A stretch of 37,993 nucleotides of DNA from Verrucomicrobia bacterium UBA1731 (GCA_002317575.1 DCIH01000004.1:21171-59163), one strand, 5' to 3'; shown: positions 6,080-37,446, counted from the first letter of the stretch. The notes: generated by a model from the letters alone, not told the origin. Numbers and translations are program-made.

Positions 6080-6085
6080 GAGGAA

Positions 6086-13275: not shown

Positions 13276-14322
13276 TTACGAGACCGTGACCGCGCCGGAC
13301 ACGCCCGTGAAGGTCGCGCTCGGATAGATTTCCTCGCCCGTGAAGGTGGCCGTGCTGACCGTACCAGCCGGGGTGATCTCGGAGACCGCGACCGTGCCGG
13401 ACGGGGTGCACAGACCGCCGTCGAGGTTCGCCGCCGTGCCCGTGAAGGTCGGAGCGGAGATGGATCCGGCGGGAGTGATGCTCTCCACCGAGACGTTGCC
13501 CGCCGCCGTGACCGAACCCGTGACCGCCGAAGCGGAGCCCGTGAAGGTCGGGGCCGTCGCCGTCGCCGTCGCGCCCGTCACGAACGACTTGCTGGCCGCC
13601 GTGAGCGTCAGCACTTCGCCCGAAACAGAAGCCGTAAGTTCGCCGATGCTGGCCGTCGGAGCGGAGACCTCGATGGTCGGAGCGGAGACCGTGCCGTAAG
13701 GCGTGCAGGAGCCGTTGGCGAGGTCGACCGTCGTGCCCGTGAAGGACGCGCTCGGCGTCACCGCCGTGCCCGTGAACGCGGGGGCGCTGACCGAACCCGT
13801 GGCCGTCACCGTGCCCGTCACCGCAACGGACGAACCCGTGAAGGTCGCCGTGGGCGTCACAGCCGTGCCCGTGAAGGTCTGCGCGCTGATCGTGCCTTCG
13901 GGCGTGATCATGCCGACGCTCACGGTGCCGGTAGGCGTGAACGAACCCGTTGCGCTGTCCTTGTAGGCGAGAGCGCCGAGCTTGCCGGACGAACCGAGTT
14001 CGCACCAGCTCGTACCGTTCCAAATGAACTCGAGGCCCTGCGTGGTCTGGCCGACCGTCTTGTTGTAGCAAACGAAGTTGCCCTTCGTGACCGTCACTTC
14101 CTTGGTCTCGCCCGAGCTGCCCGTCTTGTAGACGTCAATCGGGTTGACGGTCGAGCCGTCGACCAGCTCCGTGGCGGAAACGCCGAGGAACTTCACGCCC
14201 TGCGCGACGAGCTCTTCGAGCGCGGTGATGGCCGTGCGGGCCTCGCCGTCCTTGATGTAGCGCGTCACGTTGTCCGGGGTGACAATCTGCGACAGATAAT
14301 TCTTGGTAGGATCGTCAGTCAT
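13276..14322 (-). CDS. tail fibre protein with beta-strand TFTG repeats (348 aa)
   Basis: N-terminal YIKDGEAR motif, an FIWNGTSWCELG knob-like motif, then at least 8 copies of x-FTG-T/S-x-V-T units. Confidence 0.65.
   Translation of the reverse strand: MTDDPTKNYLSQIVTPDNVTRYIKDGEARTAITALEELVAQGVKFLGVSATELVDGSTVNPIDVYKTGSSGETKEVTVTKGNFVCYNKTVGQTTQGLEFIWNGTSWCELGSSGKLGALAYKDSATGSFTPTGTVSVGMITPEGTISAQTFTGTAVTPTATFTGSSVAVTGTVTATGSVSAPAFTGTAVTPSASFTGTTVDLANGSCTPYGTVSAPTIEVSAPTASIGELTASVSGEVLTLTAASKSFVTGATATATAPTFTGSASAVTGSVTAAGNVSVESITPAGSISAPTFTGTAANLDGGLCTPSGTVAVSEITPAGTVSTATFTGEEIYPSATFTGVSGAVTVS
13279..13953 (-). repeat. in-frame coding repeats (TFTGTAVTP-type units)
   Basis: cccgtgaaggt(c/g) recurs at about 13306, 13340, 13440, 13540, 13737, 13838 and 13870. 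Confidence 0.7.
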
Positions 14323-14365
14323 TTTTCAATGCCTTTCTTTTTTGTTTGTTTGTGGTGTTGCAACA

Positions 14366-16369
14366 TCACGAAGGAACGTCCCCCGTGGTGAGAATGAGTT
14401 TCTGCCCGTTCGCGTACGCGCCGACGCGAGAACCGATGCGGGCGATGGCCGCTCCGATTTCCGTTGCGCTCACGCCGCTGTCTGCGAGGTTTCCGTCGAC
14501 GGTCAGCGACGCAAGATGCCCAGCCGTTGCGTTCTTGACCTTGTCCGCCTTGCCTTCTCCCGCTCCGCCGTTGTCGAGCTTTTCCTTGTCGGCGGCGCTC
14601 ATGAGTCCGTCCATCGTGGTCGTTGCCGTTCCGTCGAGATTCACTTCGACGGAGAACGACGCGTCTTCCTCTTGGACGATGATCTTCATCTTCTGCAGGA
14701 ACACGTCGTAAACGACGGAGCTGACAGTCTGCCAAGTTCCGAAGCCGGGCGTCCCGCGCTTGCGAGACCTTTCGTTGAACACTGCCTGCCAGTGCGATTC
14801 CTTGTTTGCGAACGCGTCCGGCTCGGTTACCGCCTTGACGACCGTCAAATTCCCGAACGAATCGTTGCCGCAGAACTCGGTGTGCCAGTACGGTTCCTCT
14901 TCCGGCGCGTACGCCTTGGTGTACTTCAGCTTTTGGAGAAGCGACCTCATGCCAGCTTCCGTGTTCGCGGTCGCGTAGTTCTCGAGGATGATGTTCATGC
15001 GCTCGAGTCCGATGCCGTACGGATCGAGTCCGTTGACGATGGAGTAGTCCACGCGTCCGCTTCCAGTTGCGTCTGTCGCCACGCGGTAGTTTGTCACCCA
15101 CGGGCGGCTCGTAATGTCTTTAGCCACGCCGTCCTCGACCAGCCACGTGCTTGTTCTGTCGGCGAGGATGAAGTGCACGTCGAAGTTCCAGCTGACGGGA
15201 ACCCACACCGCGTCCGCGAGGAACCGGGCCGCGCCCTGCGCCGTCGAGAATCCGTCCAGCGCGTACCGAACGCCCGAGAAGACGCACACGTCGCGCCCAT
15301 GCCATCCGCTCGTCGCCTTCTTCGGAACGACGTTCACGCAGGCCGTGAGAGACACGTCGTTTATGCCGTCCGTAATCATGCAAGGCATCGCCTTCATCCA
15401 GTCGTTTTTAGCCCTGCTTGCGACGATCTCGTCGGTGAGTTGCTTGATGCCCCCGGCGATGCCCATAGTACGGTGCTTTCCGTTGTGCGCTTCCGTGCGC
15501 ACGATGAAGCTCGCGCTTTCGTCGTAGTACCAGTCGTAGTTGCGCCCGAAGTATCGGAAGTTCCGGGCGACCGAGCAGAGTCCCATCGCCGCGAACTGGT
15601 AGTTTTGCTTGAGCCACTCTTCGACGCCTTCGTAGTCGATGGCGCGGTATTCCGTCAGCCACAGGTACTCCCGCACTTTTTTGATGAGCGAGTAGCCGTT
15701 CCCGTAGACGCCTTCGTAGAGCTTGTCGTCCGCCGCCTTTCGCGCCGCCGTTTCCGCCATGTCAGCCGCCGCGCGCGTCACGGTCTCTGCGGCGAGGTCT
15801 TCCGCACCTGCAAACGACGCCGGATTCTTTCCGCTGTCCGCGATATTGCCGTCCGCCGTGAGCGACGCGAGGTTGCCAGCAGTTGCGTTTTTCACCTTGT
15901 CGGCCTTGTCGGCCACTTCGGCGGAAATGTCGATCACGACGTTTCCTGTACCGTCCGGCTTCTTTCCGTTCACGGAGAGGACGACGTACCGCCCTGCTTC
16001 CGGGTCGCTCGGATCCATCTGCGGCACGATCCCCTGCATGGTCGATTCCGTCACCGTCAGCTTTCCGCGCCCGCTGAAGTAGTAGGTCGGCATCTTGAAG
16101 TGGACTTCGTAGAAGCTCTCGCCAAGCGTGTCAAACGTCTCGTTTGTGAATGTGACGCGCCAAACGTTGCCGACCTTGCGCGTGTTATATTCCCACGGGA
16201 TCGCGCTCCCCGGCTTGACGACAACGACCTTGACGTCGCTGGCCCCGGTGGGCACGCCGACGATGTCCGCCATCGCCGCCGAGTTCTCGCCGACGTAGAG
16301 CGCCGTGAGCTGGATTTCGGGGTTGCCCGTTTGAAGTTGAACCGAAGTCGTGATCTGCCTGCCGTACAT
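14366..16369 (-). CDS. tail fibre/spike protein with embedded Ntn-hydrolase (choloylglycine hydrolase / penicillin V acylase-like, C59) domain (667 aa)
   Basis: ATG 16369 behind GAGGGAGG. The central region reads C265-SVARNFRYFGRNYDW...HRTMGIAGG...ITDGINDVSLTACVNVVP...DVHFILADRTSTWLVEDG...RPWVTNY. This parallels the bile-salt-hydrolase motifs C-T...GRNMD, DGMNEKGL..AGLN and LTNSP. It is flanked by KADKVKNATAG(N/H)LASLT.DGN.ADSG fibre repeats and a GLMSAADKEKLD motif. Confidence 0.7.
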   Translation of the reverse strand: MYGRQITTSVQLQTGNPEIQLTALYVGENSAAMADIVGVPTGASDVKVVVVKPGSAIPWEYNTRKVGNVWRVTFTNETFDTLGESFYEVHFKMPTYYFSGRGKLTVTESTMQGIVPQMDPSDPEAGRYVVLSVNGKKPDGTGNVVIDISAEVADKADKVKNATAGNLASLTADGNIADSGKNPASFAGAEDLAAETVTRAAADMAETAARKAADDKLYEGVYGNGYSLIKKVREYLWLTEYRAIDYEGVEEWLKQNYQFAAMGLCSVARNFRYFGRNYDWYYDESASFIVRTEAHNGKHRTMGIAGGIKQLTDEIVASRAKNDWMKAMPCMITDGINDVSLTACVNVVPKKATSGWHGRDVCVFSGVRYALDGFSTAQGAARFLADAVWVPVSWNFDVHFILADRTSTWLVEDGVAKDITSRPWVTNYRVATDATGSGRVDYSIVNGLDPYGIGLERMNIILENYATANTEAGMRSLLQKLKYTKAYAPEEEPYWHTEFCGNDSFGNLTVVKAVTEPDAFANKESHWQAVFNERSRKRGTPGFGTWQTVSSVVYDVFLQKMKIIVQEEDASFSVEVNLDGTATTTMDGLMSAADKEKLDNGGAGEGKADKVKNATAGHLASLTVDGNLADSGVSATEIGAAIARIGSRVGAYANGQKLILTTGDVPS
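14474..14551. repeat. direct repeat, left copy (pairs with 15830..15913)
   Basis: About 75% identical by hand alignment to 15830..15913. Both copies encode KADKVKNATAGxLASLTxDGNxADSG. Confidence 0.7.
15830..15913. repeat. direct repeat, right copy (pairs with 14474..14551)
   Basis: See the left copy. Together the two copies bracket the Ntn-hydrolase domain. Confidence 0.7.
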
Positions 16370-16402
16370 TGTCGCCTCCCTCGTTTTCGCCGCGCGGGTC
16401 AA

Positions 16403-19051
<2,649 letters not shown>

Positions 19052-24249: not shown

Positions 24250-27200
24250 TCAGCGAGACCAGCGGACGGTTCCGGCGCGCCTGCCGCCTTCCGGGTTCTG
24301 CTTCGTCATGGCCGACAGCATCTGCCGCGTGATTCCGACGAGCGACTTCGTGTTTTCCGCCGTCTTCGTGCCCCACGAGGACACGTTTCCGCCGAGGCCC
24401 ATCTGCGTGAGTCGGTTTTGCGGCTTCAGCTTCTCGCGGTACGCGAGTTCCTTTTCGTCGCCCTCGTATTTCATGTCGGCGATTGCCGAGCGCGCGCTTT
24501 CGATGCGGATCCGGCTTTCGTCGCGCGTGCGCTTGAGGACTGCCAGCTCTTCGACGCCGATTTTCGCGCCGTTGGCGACTTGGATGATGCGCTTCGCGGC
24601 CTCGTCCATCGGGTTCGCGTTGACGCGCGCCTCGTATTCCGCGCGCTGTTGGCGCGTGAGGTTCAGCTTCCCGCCGTTCTCCTGCGCACGGATGAGGACG
24701 TCGCTGTCGGCGTACTCGCGCCGTCCGCGAGCGAGTTGCTCATGCTCGATGGCCATGCGGCCTTCGTAGCTCGCGCGCTTGCGGCGCTGGTCGCGTTCGA
24801 ATTCCTCGTCTGCCATTTTGTACTGATGCGTGCGTTGCTCGTTTTCCATCTTGACGTCGCGACGCCGCAGATCGTCTTGGGCGAGGCGTCCTCGAGCCCC
24901 GGTCATGTAGTCGTATGCTTCCTGTCTCTGCCGCTCCGCTTGGTACTGCTCGTCCCGCGTCATCTTCGGGCCGCGACCTTCGTTTGACGCGCGTATCTTT
25001 TCGTCGAGATCGTTGTAGATGCGGCTGTACTCCGCCTGCATCCGCTCGTCCATCGCGCGCCGTCCCTCGTCCGTTTCAGCGTTGTACTTCGCTTCGCGCT
25101 CGTAATCCTTGCGCTCCTTTTCGACGGCGTGCAGGCGATCCTCTTCCGCGCGTCGCAGTTCGCGCTCGAGCGCCTTCTGCGCGGACTGCGCGGCGAAGCG
25201 CTGGGATCGTGCGGCGTTTCTGTAGTTGATCGCGTTGGACAGGCGCTGGGCGTCCACGTCGCTCATTTCCTTGTAGTACTTCGCTTCGATTTCGGCGATG
25301 CGGTCTTGCACCTTCATCTGCTCTTCCAGCAGGGCGCGCTGTTCGCTTTCGCCCATGCTCCCGGACTGGAACTTTGCCGTTATGTCGGCGTCCTTTTTGT
25401 TCAGCTCGGCGAGGGTCTTCGTGGTGTCTTTAACCTTCTGCATTTCGACCGTTATGGACGCGATCTCTTCGGCGAGCTTCGCCTTTTCCTCTTCAGTGGC
25501 GCTCCCGGAGGACATCGCCTTTTCGGCTTCCTGTTTTTTCCAGTAGAGTCTGTTGTATTCGTCGTCTGCGGCTTTGCCGATTTTGTCCGCGTACTTCGCG
25601 CGGATTTCCTTGACGGTCGCGTCTTCGTCGTTTTCTTCAGTCTGCCAGCGCGCAACTTCCTTTTTGGCGTCTTCTGCCTTCATCGCGTATCCGGCTTCCT
25701 CGTTTGCCTGCTCGCGGGCGTATTGGCGCTGTTGCTCGTTTATGTCGTATTCCTCGCGCGCGATCTGCTCGTCGCGGTTGTACTTGGCCATGCGCATGGA
25801 GCGCGCCTGCTCGACGCGGGCGAGTCGGTTTTCCTCGTCCGTCGCCTTTTTCTGCGCGTCCACGGTTCTGCGGCGCTCTTCGATGGTCTTGCGCTCTTCC
25901 GCGAGGACGTCGAGCTGTCCCTTCGTCAGTTTCTCGCCGCCGACGATCACGCCTTCGAGCGCCTTGATTGTCTGCGCAGCAGATTCGATGGCCTTGTTGT
26001 TCTCGTCCGCCTTTTCCGTGAGTTGTTTGAGACCTTTCTCGCCCGCGTTCAGCCCCCATTGGCTCGCCGCTTCTCCGAAGTACCCGAAGTCTGCGTATTG
26101 GTTTTGTGCGTCCGTTATCTGCTTCCCGAGTTCCTGCGCTTTTGCGAGCGCCTCTTTAGCGGCTTTGAGCTTGTCTTCTGCGTTTTTCGTTTCGACGGCG
26201 TTTCGTCTCGCTTCCACGTCCAGCGCCTGCGTCTGCTCTTCGTAGTTCGATTGGTCGTCCGCCTCTTTGGCGTTCTGCTCGGCGTAGAATCTCTCGTTTG
26301 CGCTGACGGCGCTCATCGCGGCGCGCGTCTTCATGAGGTCGCGTTGCGCCTTTTCCGTCGCCCGTACGGCGTCCGCCTGCTCCTTTTCGATCTCCAGCTC
26401 CTTTTTCGCCATCTCCGCGTTTCGGTCGTATATCTCCATGCGCTTTGCGAGGATCGAATTCGCAGATTCCGTCGCCTGCCCGAGCGCTTCGATTTGGTTC
26501 AGTTCTGTTTCGACCTTGCGCTCGATGCCGCTCCAATAGAAAAAGAGCGCCTTGGAGAATTCGACGATTTTCGAGAATCCCTCGATGGCAAGCCCGATGG
26601 CCGTCGCCTTGAGCATATTCTTGAGCGCCGTACCTGTAATGCGCGCGCCCGCCGCCAAACGGAAGAGCGAGGTTATGAGGCCGTTCACGTCGCCGTTGAC
26701 GATCTGCGTCGGGATTTCGTTGGGGTCGAAACCTCGCCGAAGCGATTCCCCTGCGGAGTCCACGTTCTGCCGGAGGTTCGAGACGCTTTTGTCGATGTCT
26801 TGGAGGACGGGGCCGAACTTCTCCATTTCCTTGGCGCTCATGCCCTGCATCGACTTGCGGAGCTTGTCGTTTTCCTCGTTGATTTTTGCGAGGGACTGCG
26901 CGTTCAGCTCCCCGGACAGGAGTTCCTTCATGCGCGAGAGGTGTCCGTTCGCCTCTTTCGCCTTCGACGGGTCGACGTTCTTGAGCGCCGCCGACATCCG
27001 CGTTATGCCTTCCTCGAGTCCGCGCGCGCTCTTGATCTTTTCGATGCGCTCGTTGAGGAGTTCCATCTTGTCGATGCCCGTGGCTTCGACCGAGAGCTTG
27101 ATCTTGAGAGCGTCTTGGACGGCGTCGCTGAATTCCTCGTATGCCGCGCCGACCTTTTTGATTTCCTTGTTGATGCGGACGAGTCCGTCCGGCTTGATGT

Positions 27201-28704
27201 TTTCCGTCTGCGTCAGCAGTTTGCCGAGGAACCCGGCGAGGCCCTTCATCGTCGATTCGTCGAACACCGTTCCGTCCACGGTTCCGCCTTCGACCGCCTT
27301 TCGGAATCCGTCGAGCGTCTGCTGGATTTCGTTTCCGACCGCTGTGCCGAATTGCCCGGCCTTCGCCGAGAGTTCGTCGATTGCGTTCACGAGGCCCTGC
27401 GTGGTCGCTTCCACGCGCATGATTGCGGGCGGCTTGTTCGCGCGTTCCTTGACGGCGTCCACCGCGTCCTCGGCGTCTTCCGCGTCCGCGTCAACACCGA
27501 GAGTTACTTTGTTGTCGCCCGTTTTTGCAGGCAAGTCGACAGGGCCGATGACGGCGTTCACTTCCACGCCTTCTTCGGCGCGTGCGACGAACGCGTCGAA
27601 TTCCGCCGTGTCGAGCTTCACGCGGCTTTGTACGACGACCTCTTCATTCGGTGCGTCCGTGGCCGTGCGCTCCACCTTTTGCGTGGTCGGGGATGGATCG
27701 GGGAGTTCGTTGGCCGCTCGGCGTTCGACATCTTGCGTGGTCGGCGTGGGCGCGGGTACGTCCGTGGCCGTGCGTTCCACCTCTTGCGTGGTCGTGGCGG
27801 GCGATGGTGCGTCCGTTGCCGTCCGCACCACCTCTTGGGACGCCTTGTCAGGGTCTTCCGGGCCTTCCGCCGTGCGTTCGACCACCTGTTTGGCCTTCGG
27901 CAAGTCCGCCACGTCTCTTTCTTGCGCCCCGTTGTACGTCTTCGGCGCAACGGTTGCGCCACGCCCCTCCACGTTTTGACCGATTTCGGCCTTCACGGGC
28001 GTCACGACGGCCTTTTCGGCCTCCGCCTTGACGGCGTCCACCGCCGCCTCCGCCTTCGACGCGTCCGCTTCCACTTCGATTTTCGCCTTCGCCGGAGCCG
28101 TTGCCTTCGTCGCCTGCGCGCGCGCGTCTGCCGCCTTTGCGATGAACGCTTCGACGGTCGCGGCGAGCGCTTCCGTTTCCGCCTTCACGGACGCGAGGTC
28201 TGTTTCTTCCGTCATGGCGATCTCGGCGTTTAGGTCTGCCCACCCGGTGACGACCTCGTCCAAGTCCAGCCGCGAAGCGTCCGCGAGAGCGCGCGAAATT
28301 CGGCCCACGGACGCGCCCATGCCATCCAGCGCGTCTTTTCCCGTCGCCGCCTTGGAGAGGTTTCTCGCGGCGTCTCGCGCGGCCACGGCGGCGTCCACGA
28401 CGTCCGCCTTCTGCTTTTCTCCGACGATTTCGACGGGCTTGTCGTCACCCGTTCTCTTGACGGCGATCTTGACCTCCTGCGTGTACGACTTCGCCTTGTC
28501 AGCCGCCTCGATCTTTTTCTTGGCGTCCGCGTCGTCGACGACGACCTTCGCCTTCACGGCGACGGCCTTGTCCGCCTCTTTGGCCGCTTCGCCGAGATTC
28601 CTCATGGCCTTTTCGGCTTTCTGCGCGGACTTTGTTGCCGCGTCGACGCCGCTGGTGTCGGCGTCCATCCCGATGTGGAACTTGATTTCGTGTTTTTTGG
28701 CCAT
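24250..28704 (-). CDS. tail tape measure protein (1484 aa)
   Basis: Very long Ala/Glu/Lys-rich helical protein with a central hydrophobic segment ATAIGLAIEGFSKIVEFSKALFFYW. Position lies between the chaperone-like gene and the distal-tail genes. GAGGGGGTG SD. Confidence 0.85.
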   Translation of the reverse strand: MAKKHEIKFHIGMDADTSGVDAATKSAQKAEKAMRNLGEAAKEADKAVAVKAKVVVDDADAKKKIEAADKAKSYTQEVKIAVKRTGDDKPVEIVGEKQKADVVDAAVAARDAARNLSKAATGKDALDGMGASVGRISRALADASRLDLDEVVTGWADLNAEIAMTEETDLASVKAETEALAATVEAFIAKAADARAQATKATAPAKAKIEVEADASKAEAAVDAVKAEAEKAVVTPVKAEIGQNVEGRGATVAPKTYNGAQERDVADLPKAKQVVERTAEGPEDPDKASQEVVRTATDAPSPATTTQEVERTATDVPAPTPTTQDVERRAANELPDPSPTTQKVERTATDAPNEEVVVQSRVKLDTAEFDAFVARAEEGVEVNAVIGPVDLPAKTGDNKVTLGVDADAEDAEDAVDAVKERANKPPAIMRVEATTQGLVNAIDELSAKAGQFGTAVGNEIQQTLDGFRKAVEGGTVDGTVFDESTMKGLAGFLGKLLTQTENIKPDGLVRINKEIKKVGAAYEEFSDAVQDALKIKLSVEATGIDKMELLNERIEKIKSARGLEEGITRMSAALKNVDPSKAKEANGHLSRMKELLSGELNAQSLAKINEENDKLRKSMQGMSAKEMEKFGPVLQDIDKSVSNLRQNVDSAGESLRRGFDPNEIPTQIVNGDVNGLITSLFRLAAGARITGTALKNMLKATAIGLAIEGFSKIVEFSKALFFYWSGIERKVETELNQIEALGQATESANSILAKRMEIYDRNAEMAKKELEIEKEQADAVRATEKAQRDLMKTRAAMSAVSANERFYAEQNAKEADDQSNYEEQTQALDVEARRNAVETKNAEDKLKAAKEALAKAQELGKQITDAQNQYADFGYFGEAASQWGLNAGEKGLKQLTEKADENNKAIESAAQTIKALEGVIVGGEKLTKGQLDVLAEERKTIEERRRTVDAQKKATDEENRLARVEQARSMRMAKYNRDEQIAREEYDINEQQRQYAREQANEEAGYAMKAEDAKKEVARWQTEENDEDATVKEIRAKYADKIGKAADDEYNRLYWKKQEAEKAMSSGSATEEEKAKLAEEIASITVEMQKVKDTTKTLAELNKKDADITAKFQSGSMGESEQRALLEEQMKVQDRIAEIEAKYYKEMSDVDAQRLSNAINYRNAARSQRFAAQSAQKALERELRRAEEDRLHAVEKERKDYEREAKYNAETDEGRRAMDERMQAEYSRIYNDLDEKIRASNEGRGPKMTRDEQYQAERQRQEAYDYMTGARGRLAQDDLRRRDVKMENEQRTHQYKMADEEFERDQRRKRASYEGRMAIEHEQLARGRREYADSDVLIRAQENGGKLNLTRQQRAEYEARVNANPMDEAAKRIIQVANGAKIGVEELAVLKRTRDESRIRIESARSAIADMKYEGDEKELAYREKLKPQNRLTQMGLGGNVSSWGTKTAENTKSLVGITRQMLSAMTKQNPEGGRRAGTVRWSR
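27640..27888 (-). repeat. five tandem units of about 17 aa (Q-E/D-V-E-R-T-A-T-D-x-P-x-P-x-T-T) in the tape measure
   Basis: QVVERTAEGPEDPDKAS / QEVVRTATDAPSPATTT / QEVERTATDVPAPTPTT / QDVERRAANELPDPSPTT / QKVERTATDAPNEE. Confidence 0.7.
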
Positions 28705-28708
28705 GCCG

Positions 28709-29263
28709 TCACCCCCTCATGGCGCGCATCCGTTCGATCACGCGCTTCTCGAAATAGTCCATCACGCTCTCGCCGCCGTTCCTTTGTCTCGCGCACGCGA
28801 TGATGGCTCCCGCGCGGCAGAGCGGCGTTTCCAGCGCCTGCTCCAAATCAATCGAATGCTCGGCGGCGATGCACTCGGCGATTTCCAGAGGCCATCCGAA
28901 CCCGCGTTCGATGCCGAGGTTGATTTCGTTTTTTTCCGTCTTTCCGGCGACGAAGGACGCGAACCCCTCTTCCACGAGGGCGTTCACGACCGGGAACGCC
29001 TTGTCTTCCGTCACGGCGTTGTCCTTGAGCCATCGCGCCATCGCGCGCGCCCCGTTTCCGTTGACGGCCTTCGCGCATCCCCTGCCGTCGAGGGACATCA
29101 CCCACGCCGCGAGGAGCGCCTGCTCCCTCGGTATTCGGCGGGACAATTCCACGCCAAGCGCCTCGAGCGCCGCCGCGTGGTAGATGGTCGTCGGCCCGAT
29201 CTCGGTTCTGCCGAGCCGGGCCGACGACGGGAAGACCGCCGATATGGTCTCGATGGGCAACAT
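28709..29263 (-). CDS. putative tail assembly chaperone, called by position (184 aa)
   Basis: Lies between the tube gene and the tape measure, 5 nt from the tape-measure start. No frameshift partner frame was seen. Confidence 0.3.
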   Translation of the reverse strand: MLPIETISAVFPSSARLGRTEIGPTTIYHAAALEALGVELSRRIPREQALLAAWVMSLDGRGCAKAVNGNGARAMARWLKDNAVTEDKAFPVVNALVEEGFASFVAGKTEKNEINLGIERGFGWPLEIAECIAAEHSIDLEQALETPLCRAGAIIACARQRNGGESVMDYFEKRVIERMRAMRG

Positions 29264-29281
29264 CGGCGCGCCTTCCGATCA

Positions 29282-29731
29282 TCACTCGGACGCCTGGTCG
29301 ATGGCCGGGTATTCGCGCAGGGTCGAGCTCACCTTCGTGATGTCCTCGTTGGAGTACGTCACGTTGATGGACTCGAGACGCCACACGACGTTCGTGGGCA
29401 GGGCTTCGATGCCCGTGAGAGAGCAGGACTGGCCCTTTTCGATGGCGCTGATGTCCACCGTGGTCGCGGACATCGTGGAGCCGGACGGATCCATCGAGGT
29501 CGAGAGGGCGATGAAACCGTCGACGCTGATCTGCCGATATGTGTACGGCGAGGCGAGGGTCACGACCTGTCCGTTCGCGCCCTTGTACTCGTTGAGTTCT
29601 CCCTCTTTGGACATGGAGATGCTCGTTGGGATGATCGTGACGTTCGTGCCGATGGTGATCTGCGCGGTAGCGGTGTCGGCGATGCCGAACGCGGGCTTGA
29701 TACCATAGGCCGTGTTGTGCTTGTATGCCAT
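29282..29731 (-). CDS. putative major tail (tube) protein (149 aa)
   Basis: Small beta-rich Thr/Ser/Ile-rich protein directly upstream of the chaperone and tape measure. No sheath gene nearby. Confidence 0.45.
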   Translation of the reverse strand: MAYKHNTAYGIKPAFGIADTATAQITIGTNVTIIPTSISMSKEGELNEYKGANGQVVTLASPYTYRQISVDGFIALSTSMDPSGSTMSATTVDISAIEKGQSCSLTGIEALPTNVVWRLESINVTYSNEDITKVSSTLREYPAIDQASE

Positions 29732-29758
29732 TTTATTGCCTTTCTTTGTTCTGTTTCG

Positions 29759-30202
29759 TTACCCGCGAAGCGAACACTCGCCCGCGAAATTCATGCGCAT
29801 CACGTTGATGCCGTCCACGTCGTCCCGGTTCATCCCCGAAAAACGGAGAGGCCCGTTGACGGTTTCCCAAAGCGACCAGTGCAGGCACGTCGCCAAATGC
29901 TCGGCTGCGTTCTGCGCCGTCAGCCCTTCGCTCTCGCTTCGGTTGAGCGACGGGTTCTCGAGGATTCGGATTTCGATGGCGACCGTACCCGTCAGCACCG
30001 CGCCGGAATCTCCGCGCCTGTCGAAGCCCGTCACTGCGACGACGATCTGCAGTCCCGACTCGGCGAGGCCGAGTTCGATTTCAGTTCGTATGTCCGCATT
30101 GTCTTCGACGATGACGGCCATTTTCCCCGACTCGCGCAGATACTCGTCTTCGCGTATGCCTTCGGCGATCTCTTCAGCCACGTGTCTCAGCGTCATTCGC
30201 AT
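29759..30202 (-). CDS. putative tail terminator / tail completion protein (147 aa)
   Basis: Position immediately upstream of the tube gene, and size. No motif recognised. Confidence 0.35.
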   Translation of the reverse strand: MRMTLRHVAEEIAEGIREDEYLRESGKMAVIVEDNADIRTEIELGLAESGLQIVVAVTGFDRRGDSGAVLTGTVAIEIRILENPSLNRSESEGLTAQNAAEHLATCLHWSLWETVNGPLRFSGMNRDDVDGINVMRMNFAGECSLRG

Positions 30203-30229
30203 GGTTTCATTCTTTCCAAGTTCGCCGCG

Positions 30230-31360
30230 TCAGTCATTCCGCGCGGAATTCGCCGATTTCGCCCCCGTCGCCTCTTCCAGCGCGCGTAGGTTCGATTCGA
30301 TTCGCATTCTGTCTTCTACGTTTTCGGCTCGCGCCAACGCCTCGCGCTCCGCTTTGACGGCCTCCCCGGCGACGCCGAGCTTCAGCAGGGCGTTTGCGAG
30401 CGTTTCCCACGGCCACGGGCCGTAATCGCGCGTGTTGGTTTGGTATTCCGTGTTTCGGTTTTCGGTCATGAGGCACAGGCGTCCGGCGAGGACGACGCCC
30501 TGCCAGCGCTCTTGGCTTGTGAGCAAGTCCATCATCTCGCAGGCGGGCGTGCGGTACGTCGGGTCGAGGCAGATCGCGCGCCACAGCCACAGCTCCATGC
30601 CGTCCAAGTCGCCGCGTTCGCCGTGGCAACGTGCGACCATGTACAGGGCGTCCGCCTTCTGCGGCGTCCATCGGCTCTTCGGGTTGTCGACGAAATCCAA
30701 GAGGACGCTCTCTGCTTTGGCGTAATCCTTGCGCGCCCAAAGTTCGCGCCCGTAGATGAATTGGCAATGAGGAGACGTCGGGTGTTCGTCGAGCGCGAGT
30801 TCCATGAGGTCGCCGTAGTATGAGCGCCCCTTTTCGGGATCGGGGTGGTGTTCGAGGACGAGATGGCCGTAGAGGTTGCAGTATCCGTTCTCTGCGATGC
30901 CCTCGAGGTATTCGTGGACGGGGTATTTCCATCGGCCTTTCCCGGCTCGGTGTATTTTGTTGTAGGTGAATCCGATGTCGGCCCCGTCCGCCTTCGTGGC
31001 GATCATCCATTTGTATCGGTAGAGCACGACGTCCGCCTTCGTGTCGGCGACCGCCTTCTCGAGGATTTCGCGCCACCCGTCGTCGGCGAACTTTTCGTCG
31101 AGATCCGTGCAGACGAACCAGTCGGCGTCCGGGTGAATCGCGCGCGCGTAATCGAGCGACGCGTTGCGCGCCACGTCGAAACGCCACGGCTCGATCTTCG
31201 CGCACGAGACGTCGGCTCCGCGCTCGCGGAGTTTTTCTGCGGTTCCGTCCGTAGATCCCGTGTCGAGGACGACGACGGCGTCCGCCTTGCCCATCGAATC
31301 CATCCATGCGTCCACGAACTTCGCCTCGTTTTTGGCGATGGCGTACACCACGATTTTCAC
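30230..31360 (-). CDS. family-2 (GT-A fold) glycosyltransferase with C-terminal TPR-like repeats (376 aa, GTG start)
   Basis: IVVYAIAKNEAKFV, VVVLDTGSTDGT and a DXD-like FVCTDLDE motif. C-terminal helical repeats (YAKAESVLLDFV...YMVARCHGERGDLDGMELWLWRAICLDP). GTG 31360 behind CTAAAAAAGGAGAACGCAAC. Confidence 0.7.
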   Translation of the reverse strand: MKIVVYAIAKNEAKFVDAWMDSMGKADAVVVLDTGSTDGTAEKLRERGADVSCAKIEPWRFDVARNASLDYARAIHPDADWFVCTDLDEKFADDGWREILEKAVADTKADVVLYRYKWMIATKADGADIGFTYNKIHRAGKGRWKYPVHEYLEGIAENGYCNLYGHLVLEHHPDPEKGRSYYGDLMELALDEHPTSPHCQFIYGRELWARKDYAKAESVLLDFVDNPKSRWTPQKADALYMVARCHGERGDLDGMELWLWRAICLDPTYRTPACEMMDLLTSQERWQGVVLAGRLCLMTENRNTEYQTNTRDYGPWPWETLANALLKLGVAGEAVKAEREALARAENVEDRMRIESNLRALEEATGAKSANSARND

Positions 31361-31400
31361 GTTGCGTTCTCCTTTTTTAGGTTGTCGGTCTTTGTTTCGG

Positions 31401-32066
31401 TCAAAACTGGAACAGGACGTCGTCGAACGCCTGAGACGCCCACGCGCCGAATCGCTCGCGCGTCGGAAGGAGACCCTCGTCTTTCGGGAGGACGGTCTTC
31501 TTCACGAGAAGGTAGAGCGGGCGGAGCTTTCCTCCGTCGTTTTCCGCGAGGACGCGTCCGGCCCGGAAGATGGAGTGCCCTTCGCGTCGCAGTTCTCCGG
31601 CGCGCCGTGCGTACGAGATTTTGTCGATTGGGATCGTGAGCGCCTTCGCGCGCTTAGGTCGTATGGTCACGGGGCCGAAGGCGCGGACGAGAGACGGCGT
31701 GTTTCCGATAACCACGTCGACGCCGTTCTCGGTTGCGTTGCGCACCTCGGTGAAACCCTCGCCGCCGTCGGGACGCCTTTTCGATCCGGCTCGCATCTGC
31801 CCGCGTCCGGGCGCGAACTCGAGGAACCCGGTGTGCATCGCGCCGAGTCTGTCTGCCGTCTTGTGGCGCGCCGTCGACGCCTCGGCCACGTGGTCGGCGA
31901 GGCGCTCCCGGCAGAACACGCCGACCTTGCGCACCACGGATCGTATGCGGGCGGTCGAGAGCACGCCTTCCAGCTCTTTCTTGAGCTGGACGGCTCCCTG
32001 CGCGCGAATTTCAACGGTGACGGCCATGAAATGGCCGCGCGGGTCAAACGAACGGGATTGCGCCAT
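31401..32066 (-). CDS. putative head-tail joining / virion morphogenesis protein (221 aa)
   Basis: Position between the head-associated genes and the tail completion genes. GGAG SD. No firm motif. Confidence 0.3.
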   Translation of the reverse strand: MAQSRSFDPRGHFMAVTVEIRAQGAVQLKKELEGVLSTARIRSVVRKVGVFCRERLADHVAEASTARHKTADRLGAMHTGFLEFAPGRGQMRAGSKRRPDGGEGFTEVRNATENGVDVVIGNTPSLVRAFGPVTIRPKRAKALTIPIDKISYARRAGELRREGHSIFRAGRVLAENDGGKLRPLYLLVKKTVLPKDEGLLPTRERFGAWASQAFDDVLFQF

Positions 32067-32130
32067 CGTCTCCGGCGTGGTATTTTGTGCGTGGTTTACC
32101 CGCTCGGCACATTGCGTGGAGGTACTGACA

Positions 32131-32412
32131 ATGGAAAACGTTGAACCTGTCGATTATTCGTCCGTCGAAGAACTTGACGCGAAGCTGAACGAGCTTGGCG
32201 CGTGCCGATTCCAGTTGCAGGACGGGACGTCATACGGCGTCGAGCGCCGCGAGGACGGACTCGTTTGGGTCTACGAGGAAATCGAATCCGACGAATGGCG
32301 TGAAGAATCTTTCCCGTCTTTCGGTCAGGCCGTGTCGCTTTTCTTGGTCGGCGGGAAGTCCCTCATGGAGCTTTCGGGCGGCGTCGTGTTGCCGCCGTTC
32401 ACGATCCGCTGA
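32131..32412 (+). CDS. small acidic protein (93 aa), the only credible plus-strand gene; candidate immunity/moron gene
   Basis: ATG 32131 preceded by GTGGAGGTACTGACA (GGAGG, 9-nt spacing). Protein-like sequence MENVEPVDYSSVEELDAKLNELGACRFQLQDGTSYGVERREDGLVWVYEEIESDEWREESF.... Its 3' end overlaps the MuF-toxin gene tail to tail by 14 nt. Confidence 0.6.
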   Translation: MENVEPVDYSSVEELDAKLNELGACRFQLQDGTSYGVERREDGLVWVYEEIESDEWREESFPSFGQAVSLFLVGGKSLMELSGGVVLPPFTIR

Positions 32413-34879
32413 CGTCGCTTTCCGTCTCGGTTCCGTCCGACGCCGATTCCGCATCCGGGACTGCCGAGCAGGCGAGTCGTATGCGGTCGCTGAACTCTTG
32501 GTCATCCGTTCGAAGGAACAGGTTGAACACCTGCGCGACGCGTCCTTTCTTCGTCGCCCTGTCCCACGGCTCGTATGGTTCTTTCCCGTCTTGCGGATCG
32601 TAGAACACAGTCTTGCCGTTTTCCTGCCGGGCGCGGAATGCGTGAGCTCCGCCGTCCCGCCACGAGATGCCGATCTCGCAACGCGCGCCGTCGCCCCATT
32701 CGGCCATCTTGTCCACGATGTCCTGTCGGCTCTTCCACGGCATGGCCTTGTCCGGCTCCTTGTAAAGCGGGAACATATAGCGCTTCGTCCCGTACTTGAG
32801 CCCGCGCCATATCACGTCCGCGTTCTTCGCCGTTCCGTTCGGGTTGACCTCACAAGGCAACGCCTCGACCTTCCATCCGCGCGCACGCGCTTCGTCCGCG
32901 CCGACGCACCGCTGGCAGTTGCTGTGGAATCGGGCGCCTTGGTTCGGCTTGGAGTAGTTCGGGTTCGTCTTCTCCATCGGCAGATCCTCTTTCGAGTGCT
33001 TCGCGCCGATGACGGACATGGCCGTCGCCGTTTTCTTCTCGAGGTCTGTGACGGGCTTCCACGCCGACTTTGCGTCCGCCTTCGCGGCGAGCTCCCATTC
33101 CCGGATCGCCCGCGCGGCGGCGGCGGCGCTTTCTGCGACGGCCACGGCCCTGCGCTTCGACGATTCCGCGAGCTTGCGGCAGGCGTCCACGCTCCCGGTG
33201 TCGACGGACGTCTTGAAAATGACGCGGGAGAGCTTCGCGGACTTTTCGGCGGATTCGAGCCGCGCGACCGCCTCTTCGGCTACGGTGTCGTCCGCCGTCG
33301 CGCCTTCCCAGCGCGCTTTCGCCTCGTCGAGCAGTTTTCTCGCCTTCGCCGCCGGATCTGCGAACGCCGCTTTCAGCGCATCGTCCACTTCGTCGGCGAG
33401 ATCTGCGATTTCGTTGTCCGCGAACACTTCGATGGCGAGGCGGGAGTCCTTTTCCGCTTCGCCGAACGCGTCTGCCATCGCCTTGGCGTCTTCAGCTTCC
33501 TTTGCTGCGCGCCGCGCGACGCTTTCCGCCGCCATCACCATCAGCTTCATCTTGCCGTCGAACCGACCCTGCGCGTTTTCGTCTTGCGGGTTCTCGGCCT
33601 TGTCCACGGCCTGCGCGTAGCCGACGAGCCGCTCCGCCTCGCCGCGCACGGTTTTCGCGCCTTCGCGCAACGCCTCGAGCGCACCGCGCATCCGTCCGAG
33701 CGCCGCTTCGACTTCCGCGTCTTCTATCCCCTTCGCCAACGATTCCGCAGTCTTTGCGTCCGCTTCCGCCTTGCGCACCAGACCGTCCGCCGCTTCGGCG
33801 GAGGCGTCCACGGACGCTCTCGCCTCTCCTATCTTGGAGAGGGCTTCCGTCTTCGATGACAAGTCCGGCGCGAACGCGGCGGCTTCCGTCGGGATCGCGG
33901 TCGTTTCCTCCGGGGGCGTTTCAGCAGTTGGAGCTTCAGCCGACGCCCGCCCTTCGCTAGAAACCTCCGGCTCCGGCTGGAGTTTGTACGGCGTTTGCGT
34001 TCCCGGCTCGAAATCGCGGCGGTCGCCGTCGCCGTAGAGGCGCTTTTTGAGTTCGCGCAGTTTCGCCTTTTCCTCTTCCGTGTATTCGTCGCGGAGCATT
34101 TTCTTGCCGGACGCCTTTGCCTTCGCGGCCACCTCGCGCCCGAAATCCTCGAGGCCGTCGGGCTTCCCCTCCTGTTTGCACATGGCCTTCCACTCGCACC
34201 CGTCGACGTTCACCCACGCCATGCCGCTACCGAACGCGAACGGCGGGTACGGAGATCCGAGCGCGTCGTCGTATCCGCCGACGCCGTCGCCGACGGCCTG
34301 CCAAATCGGGGAGTTCTTTAGGGCGACCATGCGCCGCTTGAGAGCGCCAGCCCATCCGACGGATTCGCCCGCCGCCTTCCACCGTGCGGCCCAGTCGCCC
34401 CTCGGTTTTTTGCGAGCCCCGGTGCGCGTGAGCTTCCACGCCGGGAGGGCCATGAGGACGTCGGGGTCTTCCTCGCCAACGGCCATCTGCCCCATCGACC
34501 GCGCCTGCTTGACGTTGGTGTCGATGATGAGCTGGATGCGTCGTGAGGACGAGAGGTCTGTCGTAGATCCGGGCGTCGCGGGAGGAGTACGTCCGTCACC
34601 GAACCCGGTTTGCGGCGTGTATCCGAGCTGGTGGAGGACTCCTTGGAGCTTCGCCTCGGCCACGGACGGGATGACGCGTCGGCTCGCCACGTCAGCGAGC
34701 GTCCGCTTCACCATGTCGAGGTATGCGCGCGAAGTCGTCCGCGCGGAGAAGAGCGCCTGTTGCTTGATTCGCTCGTCCCATTCCGATCCGATGGCACGCG
34801 AGGACAGTTCCGTCGGCCTCGGCTGGAGCCGGACGAGACGCTTTTCGCTCGCGCTTTCGGGCTTTTGTGCCTGCGGCAT
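32399..34879 (-). CDS. MuF/SPP1-gp7-like minor head domain protein with long helical linker and C-terminal papain-fold toxin-like (Tox-PL1/glutamine-deamidase-like) domain (826 aa)
   Basis: N-terminal RIQLIIDTNVKQARSMGQ...WKLTRTGARKKPRGDW...SPYPPFAFGSGMAW resembles Phage_Mu_F. The C-terminal NPNYSKPN...HSNC655QRC...WRDGGAH746AF...VFYD761PQDG gives a Cys/His/Asp order typical of papain-fold toxin domains. GGGAGGGGAAAGGGA SD. Confidence 0.55.
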   Translation of the reverse strand: MPQAQKPESASEKRLVRLQPRPTELSSRAIGSEWDERIKQQALFSARTTSRAYLDMVKRTLADVASRRVIPSVAEAKLQGVLHQLGYTPQTGFGDGRTPPATPGSTTDLSSSRRIQLIIDTNVKQARSMGQMAVGEEDPDVLMALPAWKLTRTGARKKPRGDWAARWKAAGESVGWAGALKRRMVALKNSPIWQAVGDGVGGYDDALGSPYPPFAFGSGMAWVNVDGCEWKAMCKQEGKPDGLEDFGREVAAKAKASGKKMLRDEYTEEEKAKLRELKKRLYGDGDRRDFEPGTQTPYKLQPEPEVSSEGRASAEAPTAETPPEETTAIPTEAAAFAPDLSSKTEALSKIGEARASVDASAEAADGLVRKAEADAKTAESLAKGIEDAEVEAALGRMRGALEALREGAKTVRGEAERLVGYAQAVDKAENPQDENAQGRFDGKMKLMVMAAESVARRAAKEAEDAKAMADAFGEAEKDSRLAIEVFADNEIADLADEVDDALKAAFADPAAKARKLLDEAKARWEGATADDTVAEEAVARLESAEKSAKLSRVIFKTSVDTGSVDACRKLAESSKRRAVAVAESAAAAARAIREWELAAKADAKSAWKPVTDLEKKTATAMSVIGAKHSKEDLPMEKTNPNYSKPNQGARFHSNCQRCVGADEARARGWKVEALPCEVNPNGTAKNADVIWRGLKYGTKRYMFPLYKEPDKAMPWKSRQDIVDKMAEWGDGARCEIGISWRDGGAHAFRARQENGKTVFYDPQDGKEPYEPWDRATKKGRVAQVFNLFLRTDDQEFSDRIRLACSAVPDAESASDGTETESDVSGS

Positions 34880-34913
34880 TCCCTTTCCCCTCCCGTTTCG
34901 GTTCAGTGAGCCG

Positions 34914-35348
34914 TCATATTTTTTCGTTGAGGAGTTTCTTTCGCGGCTCGCCGAATTCCGGCCCCGCGAGGTGGCTTTCGTCTTCCGACTCGTCGAAACT
35001 TTCGGGCGTCACCTCGCCGTTGGCCACCGCCTTGAACAGATCGAGCGCCTGCTGTCGCGCGTCCTTTCGCGGTTCCTTGATCTCGACGGGCATACGCTTC
35101 AGCACGTCGAAGGCGGCGTAGTCCATCGCCGGGGATATGAGCGATTCGGGGATGTCGTAGCTCGCCGCCGACATCCGCACCTGTTTGTTTTTTCGGACGT
35201 ACCCGCGCACCATCGCCGCCGTGCGCTTGAGGAGGTCTTCGACCGGGTCTGCCCCCGACGCGAAGTCGGGAGACGTCCTGTACGCCTCCAGCTCCTTTTG
35301 GGAGAGCGTGGCGGCGATGTCCTGCAGTGTCGGGGTTCTCCATGCCAT
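34914..35348 (-). CDS. Mu gp36/DUF1320-like head-completion protein (144 aa)
   Basis: The pattern T..DI...LS..EL.........DPVEDLL.RTAAMVRGYV.......IPESLISPAMDYAAFDVLKR....E.R...RQQALDLFKAVANGE resembles DUF1320. AAAGGAG SD. Confidence 0.5.
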   Translation of the reverse strand: MAWRTPTLQDIAATLSQKELEAYRTSPDFASGADPVEDLLKRTAAMVRGYVRKNKQVRMSAASYDIPESLISPAMDYAAFDVLKRMPVEIKEPRKDARQQALDLFKAVANGEVTPESFDESEDESHLAGPEFGEPRKKLLNEKI

Positions 35349-35349
35349 G

Positions 35350-35817
35350 TCAGTTAGCTCCTTTGTTCGCGGAGGCCGTCGCCCCCGTCCGTTGCATCAC
35401 GTCGATCTTGTCCTCGAGGGCCTTGACGCGTTGGCGCTGTTGCACCAGCTCTTCCATGACCGCCGGGGGGACGCGCCAATGGTCGACCTTTCCCTCGGCG
35501 TTCGTCACGGCGTAAACCCAGCGATCCGCCGAAACGACCACCGCCTGCGGCTTCGCGCTCGAACAGCCGACCGCCCAGCAGGCGGACGCCGCAAAAATCC
35601 CGGCGACGCATCCACGTAGCATGGCGTTCACCTTCTGCTCGTCTCCGCCCCACACGGCGGCGTTCAGTTCCTCGTACGCCGCCTCTTTCGATTCCCTCGC
35701 TTTGGCCACGTCTCCCTCAGCATCCCTTGTTTCGTTGTTTTTCGTAGATTTCCACTTGAAAAACGCGCCTATGGCGTTTCCAACGCCGCCGATCATGGTT
35801 GTAATTCCGTCGATCAT
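35350..35817 (-). CDS. membrane protein (155 aa) with nested in-frame lipoprotein-type start at 35622
   Basis: ATG 35817 behind GGGAGG; the track start at 35865 is TTG. N-terminal hydrophobic MIDGITTMIGGVGNAIGAFF. The internal ATG 35622 has its own GAAGGTGAAC SD and reads MLRGCVAGIFAASACWAVG-C (lipobox-like). Confidence 0.55.
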   Translation of the reverse strand: MIDGITTMIGGVGNAIGAFFKWKSTKNNETRDAEGDVAKARESKEAAYEELNAAVWGGDEQKVNAMLRGCVAGIFAASACWAVGCSSAKPQAVVVSADRWVYAVTNAEGKVDHWRVPPAVMEELVQQRQRVKALEDKIDVMQRTGATASANKGAN

Positions 35818-36276: not shown

Positions 36277-36726
36277 TCAGCGGACGCCTTTTGCGCGCCT
36301 CTCTTGCGACGCCCTGTATGCTCGCCAGTCGGCGACTGGCTTTCCGTCGCACTTCCGTCGCGCTGGCTCGATCATCCGCGCGTTCGGGTTGTTCCGGTCT
36401 TTTTGGAGCACGTACACAAGCGCCTGCGTTTTCGTCCCGTCTTCGAACTCGACCTCCGTCTGCGTCCGACCGTAGAGTCGCGGGTAGCCCTCGAGGACGT
36501 CCATGCGCGCCAATCCGTCGTCATCCGTCTCGAGGACTTCGCAGGCGACCATCGGAGCCGAAGAGCAACGGGTCGGCTTCGCGTTCGGGAATCCATACCC
36601 CGTGTCCCAAAGTTCCCCGTGGAACGTTCCGGGCGTCCGTTTCGCGTTTCCGGCCCACCTCTCGTTTCGCTCCCCAGCCATCAGCGTCCCGTAGACGGCA
36701 ACCAATCTCGTTTTTCCGTTTTCCAT
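36277..36726 (-). CDS. gamma-glutamylcyclotransferase-fold (AIG2/GGACT-like) protein (149 aa)
   Basis: LVAVYGTLMAGERN...GELWDTGYGFP...VACEVLE...MDVLEGYPRLYGR...ALVYV matches the GGACT/AIG2 motif order. SD AAAAAGGAGAACTGCG. Confidence 0.7.
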   Translation of the reverse strand: MENGKTRLVAVYGTLMAGERNERWAGNAKRTPGTFHGELWDTGYGFPNAKPTRCSSAPMVACEVLETDDDGLARMDVLEGYPRLYGRTQTEVEFEDGTKTQALVYVLQKDRNNPNARMIEPARRKCDGKPVADWRAYRASQERRAKGVR

Positions 36727-36759: not shown

Positions 36760-37446
36760 TCATCCAGCCGCCGCGAAGGCGTCAGGAAGTCCGTGCGCTC
36801 GCGCTCCCGCCGAGCAGATCGCCCGGTAATCGTCCGGGTACTTCTTGCCGCGCCGAGAGGCCCGAGCCGCGTCCGTCATGACGTAGGCCATCGCCTTGAC
36901 CTCGATGCCGCTGTCGAGGAGCGTCACGTCGACCCATGCGTCGGCGTATGTCGTCGGCCACCCTTCAAATCTGTCGAGCGCCGCCACCGCGTCTTCCGTC
37001 AAACGCCAAACCATCCCGTACGCCTTCGCGCCGCGCCTGCGTCTCATGTCTGCGTACAGACGCTCTTCGACCGTCCACCCGTCCGCCACTCCCCTGCCGA
37101 CCGGGCGCGCGTCGGCTCCGACCCGACCGAGAAGGCGCGCGTCGTCGAGGTTCGACCCGTATGCGAAATAGAGGTATTCCGTTTCCATTTTACCGTTCTC
37201 ATTCGGCGAGACCGTCTCGCATCCTCTGTCAAGCGACCCGTCAGTCTCGCATTTCCACTTGCGCCCGTCCGGCGTCACTACCGTGATCGGACTGTGCGCT
37301 TCGTATTGCGTCGTGTAGTCGACCGTTCCGCCTGTTGCGCGCGCAACCGCATTCGCGGCATCCTCTCGCGTGATGTTTTCGTATTCGAGTTCGACGCCGA
37401 ATGTGATCGTCGCCAATTCTTCCATCGTGACCGCTTTGTTGTTCAT
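36760..37446 (-). CDS. fusion: N-terminal amidoligase (Amidoligase_2/GS-like) fragment plus C-terminal GGCT-fold domain (228 aa)
   Basis: N-terminal TFGVELEYE...W.CETDGSL..GCETVSP matches the start of amidoligases, but the rest of that fold is absent. C-terminal YLYFAYGSNLDDARL...AYGMVWRL...LDRFEGWPTTY...AMAYV matches the GGCT/AIG2_2 pattern. SD AAAAAAAGGAGAACGGACG. Confidence 0.6.
   Translation of the reverse strand: MNNKAVTMEELATITFGVELEYENITREDAANAVARATGGTVDYTTQYEAHSPITVVTPDGRKWKCETDGSLDRGCETVSPNENGKMETEYLYFAYGSNLDDARLLGRVGADARPVGRGVADGWTVEERLYADMRRRRGAKAYGMVWRLTEDAVAALDRFEGWPTTYADAWVDVTLLDSGIEVKAMAYVMTDAARASRRGKKYPDDYRAICSAGARAHGLPDAFAAAG

Follow-up and report, generated by a model that had tools for sequence, protein, structure and literature searches.

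We found that two overlapping genes in a 37,993-nucleotide (nt) stretch of Verrucomicrobia bacterium UBA1731 (GCA_002317575.1 DCIH01000004.1:21171-59163; the whole stretch is called the window below) probably form a MuF-type polymorphic toxin-immunity cassette, carried by a tailed phage that is probably temperate and likely infects a bacterium of the Planctomycetes-Verrucomicrobia-Chlamydiae (PVC) superphylum. We put the probability of this reading at about 60%. One of the genes encodes an 826-amino-acid (aa) protein in which a MuF-like N-terminal domain is joined by a long linker to a C-terminal Tox-PL1 domain, and the other, on the opposite strand, is a 93-aa open reading frame (ORF) that meets the first tail to tail and whose product is most likely the antidote of the Tox-PL1 domain. 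An earlier note on this DNA had described the 826-aa ORF, the 93-aa plus-strand ORF, the GGAGG in front of the latter and a convergent overlap of 14 nt, and we recovered each of these from the sequence. The composition also bore out its description of an Ala/Glu-rich linker (aa 261-640: 21.8% Ala, 12.9% Glu) and of an acidic small protein (isoelectric point, pI, 4.1).

The assignment of the C-terminus to the papain-fold toxins, proposed in the earlier note, was supported by a Pfam match over the full profile and above the Pfam cut-off: PF15644 (Gln_amidase, 'papain fold toxin 1') scored 39.1 bits, where the gathering cut-off is 24.1, at E=1.9e-9 and over positions 2-114 of the 114 in the profile. 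The matched region carries the NC...H...DxQ signature as N654-C655, H746 and D761-P-Q763, and the residues that had been quoted for it were correct (C655 in FHSNCQRCV, H746 in GGAHAF, D761 in VFYDPQ). It is this signature that defines Tox-PL1 in the survey of Zhang et al. 2012 (PMC3482391), where fusions to MuF are described as well. Across nine homologues N, C, H and Q were invariant and D was kept in eight, the ninth having an Asp-to-Cys exchange. An AlphaFold (AF2) model of the domain, built from 9 sequences only, reached a mean predicted local distance difference test score (pLDDT) of 72.7, and when compared with the PDB it gave weak matches (best E=4e-3), mostly to papain-fold effectors and peptidases, namely RavD, a Josephin-type clippase, AvrPphB, OspI, MCF and Tae1. 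The Shigella type III secretion system effector OspI, a glutamine deamidase and the characterised member of PF15644 (PMC10318531), resembles our domain in belonging to the same Pfam family and in its papain-fold Cys-His-Asp triad, and its entry 4ip3 was among the fold matches; the two differ in that a phmmer search of our domain against PDB sequences matched no chain, and in that the target of OspI, Ubc13, is eukaryotic. As a separate observation, a TNPN[YF] motif stands at 32933-32947 (aa 645-649, TNPNY), five residues ahead of the catalytic NC. The motif is not part of the Pfam model, is conserved a few to ~20 residues before NC across distant MuF-Tox-PL1 proteins (loci L087, L096 and L182), and may mark a domain boundary or a processing site.

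For the N-terminus, the MuF assignment of the earlier note stood as remote homology to Mu gp30, seen by profile comparison and through phrog_220, while the Pfam PF04233 match that it had expected did not appear. The MuF models of Pfam (PF04233/PF06152) gave no match to the window protein at E<=0.1 or to its 47 close homologues at E<=0.01, and only one of 51 wider relatives was matched, weakly (E=0.065); nor was a MuF family matched in a PHROG search of the window protein's N-terminus. On the other hand, when a 98-sequence family profile was aligned with Mu gp30 by hhalign, family residues 1-249 paired with residues 1-207 of gp30 in 193 collinear columns (probability 90.3%, P=1.5e-6). The homology is thus collinear from residue 1 of gp30 to about residue 207 and includes the motif pairs PAWxL/PYWQY, SPIWQ/DIFWQ and PYPPFAFGSG/HYPPNGWNCRC. 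In addition, 15 of 51 more divergent relatives matched, at E=5.8e-9 or weaker, the family phrog_220 ('minor head protein and DNA pilot'), to which Mu gp30 itself belongs (1e-119). An AF2 model of the domain had a pLDDT of 79.6, and its named Foldseek matches in BFVD were mainly 'phage head morphogenesis domain' or 'MuF-like minor capsid protein', though weak (best E=4e-3, template modelling score 0.42-0.54). Foldseek against the PDB returned no meaningful or MuF-like match, and hhalign of the family profile against the MuF domains of SPP1 gp7, Acutalibacter phage Fontainebleau and L096 was not significant, so that Mu gp30 alone matches. Since the profile alignment, the phrog_220 matches and the fold matches agree, a placement of the N-terminal domain as a divergent member of the MuF superfamily, closest to Mu gpF (gp30), is supported.

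The resemblance to Mu extends to other head genes, as Gp36, Portal_Mu and Mu-like protease genes occur nearby or in related loci. Nevertheless, the C-x-C of the gp30 'NCRC' motif is replaced by 'GSG' here, the C-terminal MuF_C/PBECR domain of gp30 gives way to the linker and Tox-PL1, and the genomic position also differs. The toxin gene adjoins a Gp36-like adaptor gene, which is syntenic upstream of it in all related loci (L002-L010), rather than lying directly downstream of a portal gene. The earlier note had remarked on the lack of an adjacent portal, and indeed none of the scanned window ORFs matched a portal family; in L010 the Mu-type genes for portal, protease and capsid are found ~9 kilobases (kb) upstream of the MuF-like gene.

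High-GC DNA yields many spurious ORFs, and we therefore checked the 93-aa ORF closely. It occupies a gap of 332 nt in which no gene lies on the minus strand, its GC by codon position (0.64/0.38/0.72) is patterned like that of the neighbouring coding genes, and an independent gene caller also called it, on a Logan contig. Every Tox-PL1 locus of this family with readable context has a single small ORF convergent with the toxin 3' end, and the two N-terminal homologues lacking Tox-PL1 (L009 and L010) have none. By local BLAST the 93-aa protein matched the corresponding products of two such loci (E=5e-11 for L007_98 and 1e-4 for L008_126). A hidden Markov model (HMM) of the partner, built from these small ORFs, matched convergent ORFs only: directly downstream of the toxin gene in 5 of 6 distinct Tox-PL1 loci of the family, and in none of the 79 loci that lack Tox-PL1. 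A partner-profile search of 1.84 billion proteins then added ~12 small relatives of 68-136 aa; the four with readable contigs (L092/93, L094, L095 and L096) were all convergent and overlapped a Tox-PL1 gene by 4-23 nt, and the L096 toxin is a Pfam-recognised fusion of MuF2 (PF06152) to PF15644. With a further case of the same layout from a metagenome scan (L182), convergent partner homologues are present in the window and in ten further distinct loci (L003-L008, L092-L096, L182), at junction distances of -33 to +12 nt. Taken together, these data mark the 93-aa ORF as a genuine and conserved gene.

The family reaches beyond the convergent loci. With weak scores (E=2e-4 to 6e-3) the partner HMM also matched in 12 loci of other phages, in each case a co-directional ORF after a Tox-PL1 gene, -26 to +42 nt from its stop codon. 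These weak relatives share the C-terminal motif of the family, F-x-S/T-x-E-x-[AL]-L-x-x-F-x-[VI]-x-G-K-P-L, and members across loci are 25-43% identical. Because the close relatives are convergent, the weak ones co-directional and all stand at Tox-PL1 genes, sequence comparison ties the partner family to Tox-PL1 in both orientations, with the convergent layout marking one clade. The candidate partner of the earlier note is therefore conserved beside its homologues, and its family was located only next to Tox-PL1 3' ends. Zhang et al. (PMC3482391) linked two immunity families, Imm35 and SUKH, to Tox-PL1, and the likeness to our partner is that of a small protein genetically linked specifically to this domain; the Imm35 model of Pfam, however, matched none of five members of the 93-aa family at E<=10, and neither did any other Pfam family save for one chance match to a domain of unknown function. 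The 93-aa protein had no match in PHROG, and a word-indexed homology search with it alone returned only itself. The small ORFs that follow Tox-PL1 in phages Fontainebleau, GardenState and Et2Brutus showed no detectable similarity to the family. The partner family thus appears to be undescribed and specific to Tox-PL1. Apart from these counts, L002 has a 104-aa ORF (5251-5565, minus strand), convergent and overlapping, after the Tox-PL1 homologue P0005; its resemblance is at the motif level, and we did not include it.

The C-terminal part of the large protein varies among relatives while the N-terminus is kept. The N-terminal domain is common to 47 homologues (50-65% identity) that range from 450 to 1390 aa and have variable C-termini; PF15644 was found in nine, and the C-termini of the others hold no recognised cargo. 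A scan of species-representative genomes gave 76 loci, mostly in metagenome-assembled genomes of Kiritimatiellae, Lentisphaerae, Verrucomicrobia and Akkermansia, many of them with 'short' forms and none with Tox-PL1, and among sequenced phages the sole match to the N-terminal domain was in an Akkermansia phage. Hence a conserved N-terminus is combined with different or absent C-terminal cargo, as for interchangeable cargo, and a small cognate gene lies next to the toxin gene and co-varies with toxin type. Since Tox-PL1 and the partner also occur together behind a PF06152-type MuF domain (L096) and behind a similar one (L182), the sequences indicate that the two travel together, as one cassette, from one MuF scaffold to another. 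Phages in general often carry Tox-PL1, which occurred in 125 phage records of GenBank, at 299 loci in IMG/VR and at 350 in metagenomes. A temperate lifestyle is likely because of integrases in L009 and L010 and an excisionase-like HTH_17 gene in the window. Several side observations belong here. The C-terminal extensions of 38 of the 47 homologues (P0010-P0047), up to ~1390 aa and without a meaningful Pfam match, are a pool of candidate cargo, and in L060 (6001-12132) an extension reaches ~2000 aa, again without a meaningful Pfam match. The L009 integrase (5654-6802) abuts uvrB, and the L010 integrase (6268-7362) lies in the middle of the structural gene block, where integration would divide the head and tail modules.

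MuF proteins are DNA-binding head components present in few copies (PMC12226406; PMC5512222). In the mechanism that we propose, a few copies of the 826-aa protein would be taken into the capsid through its MuF domain and, at infection, go out together with the DNA, whereupon the Tox-PL1 domain would alter a cytoplasmic host protein, by glutamine deamidation as OspI does or by proteolysis. The 93-aa protein would bind and block the Tox-PL1 domain. As the gene for it sits within the late operon but on the other strand, the 93-aa protein could be expressed independently, from a promoter of its own while the late genes are silent, so that lysogens would be shielded from the toxin of sibling virions; late transcription, once begun, would collide head-on with the small gene.

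The main alternative is that Tox-PL1 is a processing peptidase acting in capsid assembly or ejection, where it cuts its own fusion or other head proteins, with the partner as a temporary inhibitor or assembly chaperone. Zhang et al. (PMC3482391) proposed such a role for MuF-Tox-PL1 fusions, annotators of actinophages name homologous fusions 'capsid maturation protease', and the conserved TNPN[YF] just before the domain could be a cleavage site. However, since Tox-PL1 was present in no more than 9 of 47 close homologues and in none of the 76 genomic relatives, the domain seems dispensable for morphogenesis; L010 already encodes a separate Mu-type prohead protease, and the window a separate cell-wall hydrolase. 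An assembly chaperone would moreover be expected to be co-transcribed with the late genes, not convergent to them, and Tox-PL1 is the sole recognised catalytic domain of the protein and is C-terminal (at the extreme end in most relatives), a layout that Zhang et al. read as that of a toxin. The dispensability of the domain and a partner gene convergent against the late operon weaken the processing role, which we consider unlikely. Whether MuF-fused Tox-PL1 is a toxin or a processing peptidase has been a standing question since 2012. The partner family tracks Tox-PL1 across unrelated MuF scaffolds and in both orientations, and therefore the enzyme seems to need neutralising, as a toxin would; the family provides a concrete candidate toxin/antidote pair.

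The orientation of the partner gene bears on a second alternative. The candidate immunity gene is convergent with the toxin gene, with which it overlaps by 14 nt, rather than co-directional and immediately downstream, and the earlier note was right to call this unusual, as in IMG/VR 57 of 62 non-duplicate Tox-PL1 loci have, after the toxin gene, a small ORF on the same strand. The 93-aa ORF could be mainly regulatory, with convergent transcription or RNA dampening the toxin 3' end or the downstream structural genes, or else an unrelated hitch-hiking moron. The two stop codons fall within the overlap, which leaves no space for an intergenic terminator, and the tail-to-tail spacing is kept at -33 to +12 nt across loci; these points favour this alternative. 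Scanning 31300-35400 revealed no sigma-70-like promoter, a consensus that may not suit PVC promoters, and terminator-like sites there were no commoner than in shuffled sequence, with none at the gene junction; because of this the idea of antisense control, raised in the earlier note, has no sequence support beyond geometry. By contrast, the amino-acid sequence is conserved between loci together with the shared C-terminal motif, the codon-position GC is coding-like, the family was never found without Tox-PL1, and its distant relatives run in the direction of the toxin gene, a layout that rules out antisense action. The conservation of the protein sequence and the existence of co-directional relatives make a purely RNA-level role unlikely, and we regard this alternative, moron included, as improbable. 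Among the terminator-like sites, a plus-strand hairpin at 33010-33037 lies antisense in the toxin gene, just past the part coding for Tox-PL1; such sites are no commoner than in shuffled sequence, and a transcript of the 93-aa ORF ending there would be antisense to the entire toxin domain.

A known precedent for the layout is found in the operons of pore-forming colicins, in which the immunity gene is on the opposite strand (PMC4436062). There, too, it is flanked by the toxin gene and by a gene farther downstream in the same induced operon, and the layout permits constitutive immunity with inducible toxin (PMC4436062). The 221-aa gene beyond our partner belongs to the same operon as the toxin gene, so that late transcripts reach it across the antisense of the 93-aa ORF, and a gene of 202-221 aa occupies the equivalent position in L003-L010. 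The comparison is an analogy of gene layout only, because the proteins are not related, those for colicin immunity being membrane proteins and the partner here being small, acidic and apparently soluble. As a tentative suggestion, a possibility rather than an expectation, the 93-aa family might be a new immunity family for phage-borne Tox-PL1 that is inverted in one clade and there forms a colicin-like switch in kin-discriminating virions. If so, immunity would be expressed constitutively from prophages, which would thereby withstand the toxin that sibling virions inject, and the cells poisoned would be non-lysogenic competitors or carriers of rival prophages. Late transcription would silence immunity by running into its gene head-on, and in PVC gut bacteria virions would serve at the same time as vehicles that deliver toxin and discriminate kin.

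That the papain-fold domain might be an amidase of the NlpC/P60 or Tae type, borne by the virion, that attacks peptidoglycan and helps the DNA to enter, as Tae1/Tse1 among the weak PDB fold matches (E ~0.2-0.4) could suggest, we regard as very improbable, since Pfam gives PF15644 and not NlpC/P60, the better fold matches are effectors acting in the cytoplasm (RavD, the Josephin-type clippase, AvrPphB and OspI), the partner is acidic and shows no obvious hydrophobic signal peptide (its N-terminus being read by eye) where amidase immunity must be periplasmic, and the phage has a separate Hydrolase_2 lysin.

Several points weigh against the toxin-immunity reading. The structural support for both domains is weak in E-value (best 4e-3, pLDDT 73-80), and Zhang et al. 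(PMC3482391) themselves preferred a processing role for MuF-fused Tox-PL1. The convergent 104-aa ORF of L002 has no detectable similarity to the partner family; it may be a replaced or a very divergent partner. Toxin and partner divergence showed no significant correlation (Spearman 0.29, p=0.2) apart from one close trio. We saw no integrase gene within the window, and no sigma-70-like promoter upstream of the 93-aa ORF, though PVC promoters may differ.

Much of this organization is already known: the MuF-Tox-PL1 architecture was described in 2012 and is common in phages. With the MuF polymorphic toxins (Zhang 2012, PMC3482391; Jamet 2017, PMC5576092) our locus shares a MuF head domain, variable cargo, a C-terminal Tox-PL1 domain and an adjacent small ORF, and relatives include the minor head protein of Acutalibacter phage Fontainebleau (PF06152+PF15644) and gp4 of Microbacterium phage GardenState (VG15+PF15644); phrog_28631 covers both a MuF part and a Tox-PL1 part. 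It differs in that the N-terminal domain has diverged beyond the reach of Pfam PF04233/PF06152, a Gp36-like adaptor gene and not a portal gene precedes the toxin gene, the related loci come from PVC genomes whereas the toxins of Jamet 2017 are mainly from Firmicutes (PMC5576092), and the partner is convergent and overlapping against a co-directional norm. What is new is thus a Pfam-invisible family of Mu gpF-type domains in phages likely infecting the PVC superphylum, its location away from the portal gene, and the Tox-PL1-specific partner family with its inverted, overlapping orientation. A blastn search of the region against known phages gave only a trivial match of 194 nt. MuF toxins are abundant in gut phages, and experimental work on them has dealt with the (p)ppApp-synthetase type only (PMC12226406). 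Cargo delivery of the MuF type would extend to phages of Verrucomicrobia, Kiritimatiellae and Lentisphaerae, in which the MuF domain escapes Pfam and 38 of 47 cargo domains are without annotation, and an inverted overlapping immunity gene would be one way in which prophages might uncouple immunity from toxin expression. As regards existing annotation, 'VIP2-like toxin' and 'capsid maturation protease and MuF-like fusion protein' are among the GenBank labels of Mycobacterium phage Et2Brutus gp2 (L088, 1191-2063) and GardenState gp4 (L089, 3086-4744). Pfam finds PF15644 only in the former, VG15 and PF15644 in the latter, and neither an ADP-ribosyltransferase nor a capsid-protease domain, and we consider these labels doubtful.

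Table 1. Positions of the two genes, their domains and their neighbours in the window
Feature	Position	Strand	Basis
826-aa MuF-like / Tox-PL1 fusion gene	32399..34879	-	ORF list; identical protein P0001 called on public contigs
MuF-like N-terminal domain, aa 1-250	34130..34879	-	homologues, hhalign against Mu gp30, phrog_220, Foldseek BFVD
Ala/Glu-rich linker, aa 251-639	32963..34129	-	composition; weak conservation among homologues
Tox-PL1 / PF15644 papain-fold domain, aa 654-766	32582..32920	-	Pfam E=1.9e-9
Catalytic codons	C655 32915-32917; H746 32642-32644; D761 32597-32599	-	
93-aa acidic candidate immunity ORF	32131..32412	+	convergent homologues; coding-type G+C at third codon positions (GC3)
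GGAGG Shine-Dalgarno, 8 nt 5' of the ATG of the 93-aa ORF	32118..32122	+	sequence reading
Tail-to-tail overlap, 14 nt, both coding regions	32399..32412	both strands	coordinates
Upstream neighbour: Mu Gp36-like head-tail adaptor	34914..35348	-	PF07030 E=3.8e-6
Downstream neighbour: basic 221-aa protein, pI 10.7	31401..32066	-	ORF list

The window has a G+C content of ~61%, and in a crude GC3-based gene map nearly all convincing genes were on the minus strand. The statement of the earlier note that the 93-aa ORF is the only credible plus-strand gene holds roughly, for the subset of plus-strand ORFs that was examined. Very long plus-strand ORFs antisense to tail genes (14303-18406, 25129-28233 and 28028-30289; 753-1367 aa) are probably high-G+C artefacts and not genes, because none was kept in this map. 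Most tail genes had no PHROG match, leaving the structural module largely unannotatable; the 1484-aa protein of 24250-28704 (minus strand), likewise without a PHROG match, is presumed to be the tape measure by size and position, and an 865-aa collagen-repeat tail fibre is encoded at 16403-19000 (minus strand). Further minus-strand genes encode a Hydrolase_2 cell-wall hydrolase, likely the endolysin (6892-7644), the HTH_17 excisionase-like protein (7805-8095), a YqaJ exonuclease (4968-6017) and a ParB_N protein (506-1879).

Just upstream of the head-tail genes lie two gamma-glutamyl cyclotransferase-like (GGACT/AIG2) genes (36277-36726 and 36760-37446, both minus strand), of which the second includes an N-terminal Amidoligase_2 fragment; the pair resembles a peptide-modification module. 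In L010 the 771-aa Mu-type portal (1-684) has a faint match to PBECR1 (RNase). Within the structural operon of the window, 30230-31360 (minus strand) encodes a GT2 glycosyltransferase with tetratricopeptide (TPR) repeats (phrog_13126, E=1e-79). A GT2/TPR glycosyltransferase gene of similar size (365 aa) stands near the capsid gene in L010, and the enzyme may glycosylate the virion or the host surface.

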